In this document: positions 41,067 to 63,597 of the stretch, in pieces | Layout: every line of letters begins with the position of its first letter | How positions within the stretch are numbered: the stretch's first letter is position 1 | Assembly (NCBI GenBank): GCA_032127745.1 | Contig: JAQBHL010000041.1 | Location: 10,230-74,229, forward strand | Direction of reading: 5' to 3' | Origin: Acidobacteriota bacterium | GTDB taxonomy: Bacteria > Acidobacteriota > Vicinamibacteria > Fen-336 > JAGNNV01 | Length of the DNA: 64,000 nucleotides | Position numbers and translations under genes: made by a program | The notes under the pieces: generated by a model | Seen by the model: the letters and a program-made list of their open reading frames with translations, nothing else | What the model was told of the DNA's origin: nothing | The model's database searches: none

Positions 41067-41732
41067 CTACTGGGGGGTGATGGTCTGGATGAGCCAGCGG
41101 CTCATCACCTTGTTTCCCTGGCCGCCGGGCGCGACGTCGTACTTGCGGAGCTGGACCGTGTAGGTCTTGACCTCGCCGTCCGACTCGACCTCGACGGTTG
41201 CGCTGGACATCACGAGGTCGCCGGCCAGGCCATCCACAGCGCTGGTCTGCCCGGTGGACATGGTGACCAGTCGCTTTTCCCGGTCATAGGCGCTCTTGGC
41301 TTCCGCCGCCTTCGCCTTGAGCTCAATGTCCGCATCGTTGAATTTCTTCCACTCGTCTGCGGTCTTCTGGAGGTTGGCGGGCGCCGGTTTTCCGGCTTCG
41401 ACCAAGGGCTTGACCTTGTCGACTTCGAGCGGATGCGCGTTGAAGTAGGCGCTTGCTTCCTTCTTGTTCTCGGATACGGCTTCGTCGGCGGCCTTGAGGG
41501 CCTTGCTGAGGCTGCCGAGGGGGGCGGGCGATCGCTGCTCCTCGCCTACGCTCGTAACCTTCCAGCTCTGGACCTCCCCTTCGAACGGGATTATCGAGAA
41601 GCTCGAGACGGTCTCGGTGTCCTTCGCCTGAGTGGCTCGAAAGAAACTGTCGATAACCGTGGCTTCCTGGCTACCGCAGGCGATGGTGGCCACGACCGCC
41701 AGCGCTGTCAAACCGACATAGGACTTTTTCAT
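41067..41732 (-). CDS. Hypothetical lipoprotein
   Basis: Lipobox ..TIACGS..; Lys/Ala/Glu-rich. Its ATG overlaps the gyrA stop region. Confidence 0.6.
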   Translation of the reverse strand: MKKSYVGLTALAVVATIACGSQEATVIDSFFRATQAKDTETVSSFSIIPFEGEVQSWKVTSVGEEQRSPAPLGSLSKALKAADEAVSENKKEASAYFNAHPLEVDKVKPLVEAGKPAPANLQKTADEWKKFNDADIELKAKAAEAKSAYDREKRLVTMSTGQTSAVDGLAGDLVMSSATVEVESDGEVKTYTVQLRKYDVAPGGQGNKVMSRWLIQTITPQ

Positions 41733-54483: not shown

Positions 54484-54834
54484 ATGGCACGACCCCCTCT
54501 CTTTTCCGAGAATCTCAACGGTTTCATCGACCAGGGCACGGAGTTCGTCGGCGAACTGCGGTTCCGCGATACCTTCCGCATCGACGGTACCGTTCGCGGT
54601 CGCATCGTTTCCGACAACATGCTGGTGATCGGGGAGCACGGAGTGGTGGAGGCCGAGATCGATTGCGGCGTGGTTTCGATCAGGGGCCGGGTTCGGGGAC
54701 ACGTCCATGCCCGCGACCGCATCGAAATCCTGGCCGGCGCGCATGTCGAGGCGACTCTGGACTCCCCCCGGATGATCGTGGAAGAGGGCGCCACCCTGAC
54801 CGGACAGACCGACGTGGGGACCAGAGGCCTTTAA
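54484..54834 (+). CDS. Bactofilin (CcmA-like polymer-forming protein)
   Basis: ..FRDTFRIDGTVRGRIVSDNMLVIGEHGVVEAEIDCGVVSIRGRVRGHVHARDRIEILAGAHVEATL.. beta-helical repeats. Confidence 0.85.
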   Translation: MARPPLFSENLNGFIDQGTEFVGELRFRDTFRIDGTVRGRIVSDNMLVIGEHGVVEAEIDCGVVSIRGRVRGHVHARDRIEILAGAHVEATLDSPRMIVEEGATLTGQTDVGTRGL

Positions 54835-54852
54835 TATAACAAACTATACAAA

Positions 54853-55893
54853 ATGACTGACCACCGACAGAGGATTCTCAGGCTCACGGAGCGAGTCAAG
54901 AGCGCCGGCTGAGCGAGCAAGCTCGGCCCCGCCGAACTCGCCCAGGTTCTGAGCGAACTCCCCCGCAGCACCGACCCCCGTGTTCTCGTCGACTACCGAA
55001 GTGGCGACGATGCGGGAATCTATCGCCTTGACGGGGGCACGCTCCTGGTCCAAACCGTCGATTTCTTCACCCCGGTGGTGGACGACCCGGAGGAGTACGG
55101 AGCGATCGCCGCCGCGAACGCTCTGTCGGACGTGTACGCCATGGGGGGCAGACCCCTCACCGCCCTTTCGATCGCCGCCATACCGGACAAGGATTTCCCT
55201 CCCGAGTGGACAGCCGCCATATTCAGGGGCGGCGCCGCCAAATTGAAAGAAGCGGGCTGCGCCCTCCTGGGGGGACATACGGTACGCGACCCGGAAATCA
55301 AGTTCGGCTACGCCGTCACCGGGGTTGTGGAGGAATCAGCGCTCCTCACGAACGCGCGGGCGCAGCCTGGCGACATTCTTGTCCTGACCAAGCCCCTGGG
55401 CACCGGCGTCATCGCCACGGCCCAGAAGGCGGGTCTGGCCCGCGAGGAATCAGTCCGCGCTGCGACCGCCAGCATGTTGCGACTCAACCGGATTCCGGCC
55501 GAACTGGCGAGGCGATACTGCGCCCGAGCCGCCACCGATATCACCGGCTTCGGCCTTTTGGGCCATGCGCTGGTTCTGGCCCGAGAGAGCGGGGTTGGTC
55601 TTGAAATCGATCTGCCGCTTCTACCGCTTCTCCCGGGAGCCCTGGAACTGGCCGAAAGCAGTCAAGCGGCCGGGCTGAAAGCCAATCGAAAACAGTTTGC
55701 CGGACGAGTGGACTTTCGAGGCGATGTGCCCCCCGATCTTCTGACCATGCTCTACGATCCTCAGACCTCGGGCGGACTGTTCCTCAGCATGCCAGAGGAT
55801 CGCGTCCGGCCCTTGCTTCTCGAACTCAAGGATGCCAGAGCGGTAGGCCGGGTCACCGCCGAAAACCAGGGCAGAATCCTCATCCTCGCGTGA
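54853..55893 (+). CDS. selD: Selenide, water dikinase (selenophosphate synthetase) with in-frame TGA (Sec) codon at 54910-54912
   Basis: ATG 54853 ..MTDHRQRILRLTERVKSAG-[TGA]-ASKLGPAELAQVLSEL..VDYRSGDDAGIYRL..VQTVDFFTPVVDDPEEYGAIAAANALSDVYAMGG.. continues into the listed ORF 55075..55893. The TGA sits exactly at the conserved active-site Cys/Sec position (E. coli ..HGAGCGCKIS..). Confidence 0.85.
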
Positions 55894-61162: not shown

Positions 61163-61759
61163 ATGGAACCGTTCCTCCTGTTTTTCGCCTGTGGAATTCT
61201 CCCCTGGACTTTCTTCCAGGCCGCCGTGCTGGAGGGTTCCACGGTCCTGGTGAGTAGTGGCGGCTTGCTTAAGAAGGTGCTCTTCCCTCCCGAGGTCCTC
61301 CCCACCGTCAGCGTGATCACCAATCTCTTCAACTTCGTGCTGTCCCTGCCCATCCTGCTCTTCTTTGTGGTCTGGAACCACAAACTCTCCTGGGCCGCTC
61401 TGCTCGTTCCCCTGCCGCTTCTGGTTCAGGTGATTCTGGCCCTGGGCATGGCTCTGGCCCTCTCCGCCCTCACCGTTCACTTCCGCGACCTGACCAACAT
61501 CCTCGGCCACCTCTTCCACCTCTGGTTCTTTGCCTCCCCCATCCTCTACGTGTACGGCTCCACTCACGGCACTCTTCGAGCCTTTCTTCGGCTCAATCCC
61601 ATGAGCCACATCATGGTGAGTTATCAGCAGATGCTGTTCGAGGGCCGATTCGACCACTGGGCCGGTCTGGCCGCGGCGGCCGCCGTCGCCGTTCTCGCCT
61701 TTGCCTTCGGCTGTTTTCTCTTCGATCGGCTTCGTGACGCCTTGGCGGAGGAGCTATGA
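61163..61759 (+). CDS. ABC-2 type polysaccharide exporter permease (Wzm/KpsM/TagG-like)
   Basis: Listed ORF from ATG 61163. Conserved N-terminal sequence (..LFRYRALIESLVSRELKARYRGSILGFLWSFINPLL..) continues upstream in frame to about 60960 without a canonical start (see findings). Confidence 0.8.
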   Translation: MEPFLLFFACGILPWTFFQAAVLEGSTVLVSSGGLLKKVLFPPEVLPTVSVITNLFNFVLSLPILLFFVVWNHKLSWAALLVPLPLLVQVILALGMALALSALTVHFRDLTNILGHLFHLWFFASPILYVYGSTHGTLRAFLRLNPMSHIMVSYQQMLFEGRFDHWAGLAAAAAVAVLAFAFGCFLFDRLRDALAEEL

Positions 61760-63597
61760 GTGCGCCGCCCGCCCACTCTGGCACCGGGGTCGCCATCATG
61801 GCTCGCGACCTGACCAAGGTCTATCGAAAATACCTTCACAAGAACCAATTCACCACCCTCAAGAGCGCCATCGTCTCCGGATCCCTGATCCGTGATCTAA
61901 GCCCCAGCGAACTTTTCACCGCCCTCGATCATGTCTCGTTCGACGTTCCGCGCGGCTGCACCTACGGAATACTCGGCGAAAACGGCTCGGGGAAGTCCAC
62001 CACCCTGAAGCTCCTCTCCGGCATCACCAAGGCCTCGAGCGGCACCCTCGAGGTCTCGGGGCGTGTTTCGGCGCTGATTGAACTGGGCGCCGGCTTTCAC
62101 CCGGAGATCAGCGGGCGCGAAAACGTGGCCATCAACGGGGTCATGCTCGGCCTCAGCCGGGCGGAGGTGACGAGGCGCTTCGACGAAATAGTCGAGTTCG
62201 CGGAGATGCAGGACTTCATCGATGCTCCGGTGAAGACCTACTCGTCCGGGATGTATGCCCGTCTCGGCTTTGCCGTGGCCATCCACGTGGATCCCGACGT
62301 TCTGCTGATCGACGAGGTGCTTTCGGTGGGCGACGAGGCTTTTACCAGGAAATGTCTGGAGAAGATTGGCGAGTTTCGCCGGCGGGGAAAGACCATCGTC
62401 ATCGTTACCCACAGTCTTGGTCTGGTGGAAAAGATGTGCGACGAAGCGCTCTGGCTGCGCAAGGGCAAAGCCATGGACTCGGGCGACCCCAAAAGAGTCA
62501 TCGACGCGTATCTGAGCTTCGTGGCCGCTCGGGAGAATGAATTGCTCGGGAAGAAAGAGCACCTCGAAGTGACCCCGGGCGACGCGCGAATCACCGGTGA
62601 AGCGCCCGAGGAAAAGCGGCGATGGGGAAGCGGGGAGATGATTTTCACCGACGTTCGCCTGAAGGACGCGGAGGATCGCACCGCCCACGTCTTTGTTCCC
62701 GGCGACACCCTCAGACTCGAACTCAAGGGCGAGGCCAGGGCTCCGGTGGAGGACTTCGTCTTCGGCCTTGGCATCTTCACCGCCGACGGCACGGCGGTTT
62801 ACGGAACGAACACCCACATCGAGCAGTACAAGTCTCGGCGAGCCGAGGGTGTCTTCAGCGTCACCATCGAGATCCAGGATCTGAGACTCGTCGAAGGCAG
62901 CTATTTGCTCGATGTCGCGATACACCGGAAAGACGGGACGCCGTATGACTACCATCGCGGCCTCTACGCCCTCAGGGTGCGCAGCCGGGTGAAGGATGTG
63001 GGGGTGTACCGGCCGCACCACACCTGGACCTTCTCCGCGGCGCTCCAGATCGACGAACCGCCGGAACGCCAAGAGCTCGAGCTTCGAGCGGTGGAGCGAG
63101 TCGAGCGAAGGAAGGCCGCAGATACCATAGAGGCCCTCCACCACGACCGAGCGAGCTTTCGGGCACTGGGCAGAATCGTGGTCTTCACCAACGGCTGCTT
63201 CGACATCCTCCACGCCGGACATGTCCGCCTGTTGGAGCGCGCCCGCGCCGAGGGTGATGTCCTGGTCGTGGGCATCAACTCGGATGCCTCCGTGAAGCGG
63301 CTCAAAGGCGACTCCAGGTCGGTGATCGAGGAGGCCGAAAGGGCGGAGGCACTCCTGGCCCTCGAATGCGTGGACCGGGTTGTGATCTACGACGAAGACA
63401 CTCCGCTCGAGACCATCGAGGCCTTGCGCCCCGACGTTCTGGTCAAAGGCGCCGACTGGGCGCTCGAAGACATCGTGGGTCGTGACGAGGTCGAGAGTAT
63501 CGGCGGGCGGGTGGTGCGGGTCGAGCTCCTGCCCGATCGGTCGACCACCGCGCTCATCGAGAAGGCGGAGGGCAGAGCCCACCCCGCTTCCAAGTGA
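61756..63597 (+). CDS. Polysaccharide ABC exporter ATP-binding protein (Wzt-like) fused to a C-terminal HldE-domain-II / cytidylyltransferase-like nucleotidyltransferase
   Basis: ABC ATPase (GENGSGKSTTLKLL, LSGG-type YSSGMYARLGF, ..LLIDEVLSVGDE..). A Wzt-C-like beta-sandwich follows (..FTDVRLKD..LRLELKG..YLLDVAI..). After a coiled linker comes ..RIVVFTNGCFDILHAGHVRLLERARAEGDVLVVGINSDASVKRLKG..VDRVVIYDEDTP..VLVKGADW.. (HxGH nucleotidyltransferase). ATGA overlap with wzm. Confidence 0.85.
   Translation: MSAPPAHSGTGVAIMARDLTKVYRKYLHKNQFTTLKSAIVSGSLIRDLSPSELFTALDHVSFDVPRGCTYGILGENGSGKSTTLKLLSGITKASSGTLEVSGRVSALIELGAGFHPEISGRENVAINGVMLGLSRAEVTRRFDEIVEFAEMQDFIDAPVKTYSSGMYARLGFAVAIHVDPDVLLIDEVLSVGDEAFTRKCLEKIGEFRRRGKTIVIVTHSLGLVEKMCDEALWLRKGKAMDSGDPKRVIDAYLSFVAARENELLGKKEHLEVTPGDARITGEAPEEKRRWGSGEMIFTDVRLKDAEDRTAHVFVPGDTLRLELKGEARAPVEDFVFGLGIFTADGTAVYGTNTHIEQYKSRRAEGVFSVTIEIQDLRLVEGSYLLDVAIHRKDGTPYDYHRGLYALRVRSRVKDVGVYRPHHTWTFSAALQIDEPPERQELELRAVERVERRKAADTIEALHHDRASFRALGRIVVFTNGCFDILHAGHVRLLERARAEGDVLVVGINSDASVKRLKGDSRSVIEEAERAEALLALECVDRVVIYDEDTPLETIEALRPDVLVKGADWALEDIVGRDEVESIGGRVVRVELLPDRSTTALIEKAEGRAHPASK

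Follow-up and report, generated by a model that had tools for sequence, protein, structure and literature searches.

The selD locus and its reading frame

The window analysed here, a 64-kb stretch of DNA from an uncultured member of the Vicinamibacteria in the acidobacteria, carries a gene for SelD (selenide, water dikinase) in the chromosomal origin region. Between positions 41729 and 60959 of the window the gene order is gyrA, gyrB, dnaN and dnaA on the minus strand, followed on the plus strand by yidC, rsmG, parA, parB, a bactofilin gene, selD and atpHAGDC, and this order is kept in relatives having either a Sec-type or a Cys-type selD, including the loci L164, L168 and L169. Farther along the plus strand (61756-63597), downstream of an ABC-2 membrane protein, lies a gene whose 613-aa product is an ABC-transporter ATPase that also bears a Wzt_C domain and, at its C-terminus, a cytidylyltransferase-like one; these domains (PF00005, PF14524 and PF01467) were read from the 99.8%-identical locus L164.

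As the earlier note had pointed out, the list of open reading frames splits selD, with the gene there being opened at GTG 55075 to give a product of 272 aa. When translation was instead begun at ATG 54853, the frame ran through a TGA at 54910-54912 and on to the TGA stop at 55891-55893, thereby giving 346 codons (Table 1). The translation reads MTDHRQRILRLTERVKSAG up to the in-frame TGA and ASKLGPAELAQVL from there; downstream of this codon comes ASKLGPAELAQVLSELPRSTDPRVLVDYRSGDDAG, with no other stop in frame ahead of 55891-55893. We entered the TGA as Cys in the protein searches, in which the product scored 351 bits with TIGR00476 (selD; cut-off 125), with residues 10-316 of 346 being covered, and 285 with NF002098, slightly under its cut-off of 299. 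The Pfam domains AIRS (PF00586, 7.6e-28) and AIRS_C (PF02769, 8.6e-15) were both recognised, and the best matches in a phmmer search against the PDB were the SelD proteins of E. coli (3U0O, 7.8e-70, residues 7-342) and Aquifex aeolicus (2YYE, 2.1e-63).

In the phmmer alignment to the E. coli enzyme, the segments GDDAG, VDFF, NALSDVYAMGG and TDITGFGLLGH of the selD product fall on the matching conserved motifs, and the glycine-rich N-terminal loop places SAG-U-ASK opposite GAG-C17-GC-K20. Translation, family model and alignment thus bear out the proposal that the frame opened by ATG 54853 has its TGA at the catalytic Cys/Sec position of SelD. Lys20 of the E. coli enzyme is essential, and its counterpart was found, as had been claimed, to be retained three residues past the TGA.

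Table 1. Features of the selD locus, with positions given in window coordinates.
Feature	Position	Strand	Description and basis
Full-length selD (selenide, water dikinase)	54853..55893	+	346 codons including one in-frame UGA, plus stop; translation, TIGR00476, Pfam and PDB matches
ATG start codon of selD	54853..54855	+	Same ATG in Cys orthologues; 18 nt past the bactofilin stop TAA (54832-54834)
In-frame TGA, almost certainly read as selenocysteine (residue 20)	54910..54912	+	Homologous to E. coli SelD Cys17; alignment, 142-locus comparison, other assemblies
AAG, Lys23	54919..54921	+	Aligned with E. coli SelD Lys20 (GAGCGCK versus SAGUASK)
hp1	54923-54935 (rel 14-26)	+	UCGGC-CCC-GCCGA, 5 bp, 3-nt loop, -6.6 kcal/mol; RNAfold, RNAalifold
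hp2, best bSECIS candidate	54938-54956 (rel 29-47)	+	UCGC(C)CAG-GUU-CUG(A)GCGA; RNAalifold, covariation, bSECIS-model scan
Alternative conformation	54910..54944	+	Lower stem UGAGCGAG with CUCGCCCA, hp1 on top; excludes hp2
Truncated ORF called SelD	55075..55893	+	GTG start, 272 aa; without Sec/Lys loop, GDDAG and VDFF

The start at ATG 54853 could be confirmed because the Cys-type orthologues begin at the equivalent ATG, with four of them (P0001, P0002, P0003 and P0007) having been called from it as proteins of 346 aa. Ahead of this ATG, the 18 nt that follow the bactofilin stop (54835-54852, TATAACAAACTATACAAA) are A/T-rich in a genome of 64% GC, and no obvious Shine-Dalgarno sequence was seen among them by eye, which suggests that initiation of selD may be independent of such a sequence or translationally coupled. 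Between the in-frame TGA and codon 75 there is no ATG, GTG or TTG in frame, so that the first possible start is the GTG at 55075, in agreement with the earlier statement that no start exists ahead of residue 74. We consider it highly probable that the locus holds a complete gene for a selenocysteine-containing SelD, the predicted function of its product being the ATP-dependent formation of selenophosphate from selenide.

Conservation of the TGA codon and of its flanking frame

For comparison, the DNA of 160 selD relatives was gathered from genome and metagenome collections, 142 of which had a recognisable site. The homologous codon was TGA in 115 of these and TGC or TGT in the other 27. The best matches were Vicinamibacteria MAGs (L001 with 84% and L002 with 80% identity), so that the window probably stems from this class of Acidobacteriota, and TGA was also found in three relatives of 93% identity (L161-L163). 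The 272-aa C-terminal product was found exactly in GCA_032124695.1 as well as in two Logan assemblies (ERR5010724 and ERR5010722), and all three matched the window exactly over the segment from 60 nt ahead of the ATG to the end of codon 77, with the TGA included. Contig JAQBCY010000015.1 of GCA_032124695.1 is a separate assembly, since it differs from the window by 40 mismatches over 18.9 kb (99.79% identity). The TGA is therefore due neither to chance nor to an error; a TGC or TGT in the true sequence is what the earlier note had named as a finding that would overturn its proposal.

We also determined whether the sequence on the two sides of the TGA evolves as coding DNA. Among the 60 sequences of the structural class to which the window belongs (class I, described below), the entropy at codon positions 1/2/3 was 0.82/0.60/1.21 upstream of the TGA and 0.63/0.48/1.18 downstream of it. 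Comparison of the window with the 93%-identical L161 gave 70 synonymous and 21 non-synonymous codon changes over the whole of selD, with 3 synonymous and 1 non-synonymous changes among the 19 codons ahead of the TGA. The frame is thus conserved on either side of the UGA and varies there in the manner of codons. Reassignment of the genetic code could be dismissed, because TGA serves as an ordinary stop for 25 of the 52 predicted genes in the window, selD included. A scan of the window found no other credible gene broken by an in-frame TGA.

In the protein search, close homologues were of two kinds, either full-length proteins of 346 aa having LTERCKSGGCASKLGP (75-78% identity) or N-terminally truncated calls of 272-314 aa (many, 77-93% identity). 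The starts of the latter are scattered over many different positions and there is consequently no conserved internal start. Two Cys-type loci (L168 and L169) show the gene order yidC, rsmG, parA, parB, bactofilin, selD, atpH and atpA onward, as in the window, and the Sec and Cys forms of selD can on that ground be regarded as orthologues. Most public entries among P0004-P0120 and L161-L166 are truncated SelD calls of 272-314 aa, and at least one NCBI entry that does bear the name SelD (P0013, Vicinamibacteria) is also truncated, at 314 aa. These clade-wide calls are a systematic misannotation of a selenoprotein, and SelD is often misannotated as truncated owing to its UGA (PMC13326102).

Stem-loops downstream of the UGA

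For the analysis of RNA structure, positions were numbered relative (rel) to the U of the UGA, which is taken as 1, with the window coordinate being 54909 + rel. By the layout of their downstream hairpins, the UGA-type relatives split into two structural classes. In selD of Terriglobia/Bryobacterales type there is only one hairpin (GUCCAA...UUGGAC), the loop of which falls at about rel 23-27 and often reads AGGUC or GGU. Class I, which is the Vicinamibacteria type and that of the window, was represented by 59 distinct sequences in addition to the window, aligned free of gaps, and for these the RNAalifold consensus, obtained with no structure supplied, consisted of two tandem hairpins, here called hp1 and hp2.

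The loop of hp1 lies 16 nt past the U of the UGA, which is where the minimal SECIS of E. coli fdhF would be, and in the window it reads CCC and has no G. This hairpin was paired in 96.9%, and its pair at alignment columns 23-29 was C-G in 51 and G-C in 8 of the 59 sequences. The second hairpin, hp2 (UCGCCCAG-GUU-CUGAGCGA), has a GUU loop closed by a G-C pair and separated from the UGA by 33 nt, and was paired in 97.8%. One of its pairs (33-43) was U-A in 31 sequences, C-G in 27 and C·A in one, the last being the window; a second pair was C-G in 55 sequences and G-C in two. Pair 33-43 is informative in that it links a synonymous Ala codon choice (GCC/GCU) with a Gly/Ser codon (GGY/AGY) three codons downstream. 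When placed on an NJ protein tree it has undergone at least four changes, the half-step of the window being one of them, with at least three independent switches. In keeping with these hairpins, the entropy at third codon positions was 0.67 over the 15 codons past the UGA, compared with about 1.2 on either side, as determined with the 60 class I sequences.

The C54942·A54952 mismatch in hp2 of the window is unique among the 60 class I UGA-type sequences, and it was found in the three other assemblies too. At this site the class I relatives have either C-G (Gly GGC) or U-A (Ser AGY together with Ala GCU). The C·A of the window looks like a half-way state in a compensatory switch from C-G to U-A, as judged from these pairings.

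The case for the hairpins was built on the comparative data because single-sequence folds of five sub-windows were not significantly better than those of shuffled sequences (z -0.04 to -1.56). Rfam gave no match over the whole window at the gathering score, nor any at 54800-55100 with E values up to 10. The earlier note had postulated a SECIS hairpin shortly downstream of the TGA, and that expectation agrees with the conserved, covarying stem-loops found 13-47 nt past the UGA and degraded in the Cys orthologues. The particular hairpin that it named, GAACtcgcccagGTTC, was on the other hand neither a predicted nor a conserved structure; its GAAC...GUUC pairing (rel 25-28 with 37-40) occurred in no single-sequence fold and not in the consensus fold, and is incompatible with both hp1 and hp2.

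One further structure was considered and set aside as the lower helix of a SECIS element. The isolated 66-nt sequence of the window has its MFE fold (-19.7 kcal/mol) in a long stem (rel 1-8 with 28-35) into which the UGA itself is paired. Across class I, 93% of the cells of this stem were paired; it was invariant, showed no covariation, and its A3·C33 position was unpaired and uncompensated in 28 of 59 sequences, and we keep it as an alternative conformer only.

We then enumerated hairpins obeying the published bSECIS model across the Sec and Cys forms of selD. That model calls for a stem of 4-16 bp, an MFE at or below -7.5 kcal/mol and a loop of 3-9 nt that has a G in its first two positions, usually as N1-G-[G|U]-N-N2, and lies 16-37 nt past the UGA (PMC13188914). 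The hp2 loop, G-GUN-C, agrees exactly with this loop pattern. A compliant hairpin reaching this energy was present in 59 of the 60 class I Sec forms, with a median of -10.1 kcal/mol; among the Cys forms the counts were 1 of 4 in class I and 3 of 23 in class II. The sole class I Sec form failing to reach the threshold was the window itself: its hp2, weakened to -6.2 kcal/mol by the C54942·A54952 mismatch, fits the model in loop, spacing and stem length only if this one mismatch is allowed. The closest Sec relatives (L161, L001 and L002) had -13.1 kcal/mol for hp2 and -6.6 kcal/mol for hp1, whereas the syntenic Cys orthologues had -0.7 to -6.3 and -0.7 to -3.9 kcal/mol, respectively. L081 encodes the same AQVLG peptide using the codons CAA, GUA and CUC, and does so without such a hairpin. 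Both hp1 and hp2 are thus selected together with the UGA. Of the two, hp2 is the better SECIS candidate and would be the more likely hairpin to bind SelB.

Some Terriglobia selD genes of the Cys type (L056, with TGC, and also L040, L072 and L140) still have a strong hairpin where the SECIS would lie, that of L056 having -12.2 kcal/mol. Such hairpins could be fossil SECIS elements of recent Sec-to-Cys conversions.

Decoding of the UGA and comparison with known systems

Taken together, the data lead us to propose that translation would start at ATG 54853 and that an mRNA stem-loop just downstream of UGA 54910-54912 would recruit SelB with Sec-tRNA(Sec), whereby selenocysteine would be inserted at the catalytic position corresponding to E. 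coli SelD Cys17, with elongation then proceeding as far as the stop codon that ends at 55893. We regard hp2 as the most likely recoding signal, with its G-GUU-C loop corresponding to the canonical bacterial SECIS pattern and located 33 nt past the UGA, while hp1 may either shorten the effective spacing or top the alternative long stem that includes the UGA. A more specific version of this mechanism is offered tentatively, as we think it somewhat less probable than its opposite: that the selD of Vicinamibacteria type has a two-hairpin recoding signal, with hp1 acting as a spacer or as part of the alternative lower stem and hp2 as the SelB site near the far limit of the UGA-loop distance, and that the lineage of the window is caught half-way (C·A) in a C-G to U-A switch that recurs in the clade, possibly at the cost of reduced Sec insertion.

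The selA, selB and selC genes would have to be encoded elsewhere in the genome. ARAGORN found no tRNA-Sec in the 64-kb window, and no tRNA gene at all there, and neither the G1 motif of SelB nor the PLP motif of SelA was matched in any of its frames. For the window, to which it applies, this negative result is meaningful, since the same searches detected selA, selB and tRNA-Sec beside selD elsewhere, for example at the TGA-selD loci L012, L043 and L068. Overall, selD was seen within a few kb of at least one of selA, selB and tRNA-Sec at L012, L035, L043, L057, L060, L064, L068, L079, L141 and L153, which include both Sec and Cys types; none of the Vicinamibacteria-type loci among those fetched showed such linkage.

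Three other explanations of the TGA were weighed against its decoding as selenocysteine. Should it be a true stop, selD would be a pseudogene or would yield only a truncated protein from GTG 55075, which would accord with gene callers giving products of 272-314 aa for this gene and its relatives, with the weakening of hp2 by its mismatch in the window and with the absence of Sec machinery from the window. A product starting at codon 75 would however lack the catalytic Sec/Lys loop, GDDAG and VDFF, and the 19 codons ahead of the TGA evolve as coding sequence, the TGA and its flanking frame are conserved in 115 loci, and the truncated calls begin at so many positions that no conserved internal start exists; we hence find a true stop very unlikely. 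A sequencing or assembly error in place of TGC or TGT would need only one base, and Cys orthologues do exist. Against this, GCA_032124695.1 and two Logan assemblies made from separate runs have the same sequence, and the TGA is shared by the relatives of 93% identity, L161-L163, and by a total of 115 loci, whereby an error, the least plausible of all the explanations considered, is effectively refuted.

It is also conceivable that the UGA is read through without selenium, either by near-cognate suppression (Trp/Cys) or by Cys being carried on tRNA-Sec under selenium scarcity, with most of the protein then having Cys or another residue at this position. Insertion of Cys for Sec at UGA is known in other systems and provides a precedent, the weakened hp2 of the window could lower the efficiency of Sec insertion, and a Sec-dependent SelD faces a bootstrap problem in making the selenium donor for its own synthesis. 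Such read-through would not require a stem-loop, however, and the conserved stem-loop with a canonical loop, being specific to UGA forms, favours SelB-mediated decoding; moreover, SelD proteins with Sec function in many bacteria (PMC4561486, PMC1794560). Selenium-free read-through is accordingly also improbable in our view, if by a narrow measure less so than a true stop, and the in-frame TGA of selD is almost certainly read as selenocysteine.

The finding does not change what is known of SelD or of Sec insertion. Among the selenoproteins of bacteria, SelD ranks second in how widely it occurs (PMC1794560, PMC5029168, PMC13188914), Sec forms make up about 19% of prokaryotic SelD genes and always have Sec at the same position (PMC4561486), switches from Sec to Cys and from Cys to Sec are documented in SelD (PMC1794560, PMC4561486), and SelD with Sec is a textbook case (PMC1794560, PMC4561486, PMC5029168). 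What is gained is a corrected annotation, with a selenoprotein of 346 residues in place of deposited 272-314-aa fragments lacking the catalytic loop, both for this gene and for dozens of relatives; an uncultured Vicinamibacteria lineage is also marked as a probable user of selenocysteine. The 59 aligned UGA forms together with the syntenic Cys orthologues moreover constitute a clean natural experiment on the RNA features tied to Sec decoding in this clade.

With regard to known systems, the product of the window shares with E. coli SelD (3U0O) the family, the N- and C-terminal AIRS domains, the glycine-rich loop, the Lys and the GDDAG, VDFF, NALSD and TDITGFGLLGH motifs, but has Sec and Ser (SAGUASK) where the E. 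coli enzyme has Cys17 and Cys19 (GAGCGCK). Alignment with the crystallised chain of Aquifex aeolicus SelD (2YYE/2ZOD) puts VKSAG-U-ASKLGP of the window at the same position as VRSSG-C-AAKVGP, in a protein that we take to contain Sec in its native form and to have been crystallised with Cys in its place. Natural SelD with Sec is also found in Pasteurellales and in many Deltaproteobacteria and Clostridia, and the window differs from these known cases in its host lineage, an uncultured member of the Vicinamibacteria in the Acidobacteriota. Selenophosphate synthetase is itself a selenoprotein in the mammalian SEPHS2 and archaeal SPS systems too, which implies a possible autoregulatory loop (PMC4561486), although the SECIS element is there located in the 3' UTR and read by other factors, whereas the signal of the window lies inside the coding sequence. 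Compared with the bSECIS consensus, hp2 agrees in its 3-nt GUU loop closed by G-C, its spacing of 33 nt (range 16-37) and its stem of 7-8 bp, but lies near the distal limit of that spacing and in the window, owing to its C·A mismatch, falls short of the -7.5 kcal/mol threshold, with hp1 occupying the fdhF-like position with a CCC loop devoid of G. The class of the window furthermore has two tandem conserved hairpins, and not one as in the consensus and in E. coli fdhF, while the SelD genes of Terriglobia/Bryobacterales differ from it in having a single hairpin with the loop at +23 to +27. Sec-containing SelD has thus long been known, and it is in the tandem hairpins, the distal canonical loop and the mismatch of the window that this locus departs slightly from the textbook picture.
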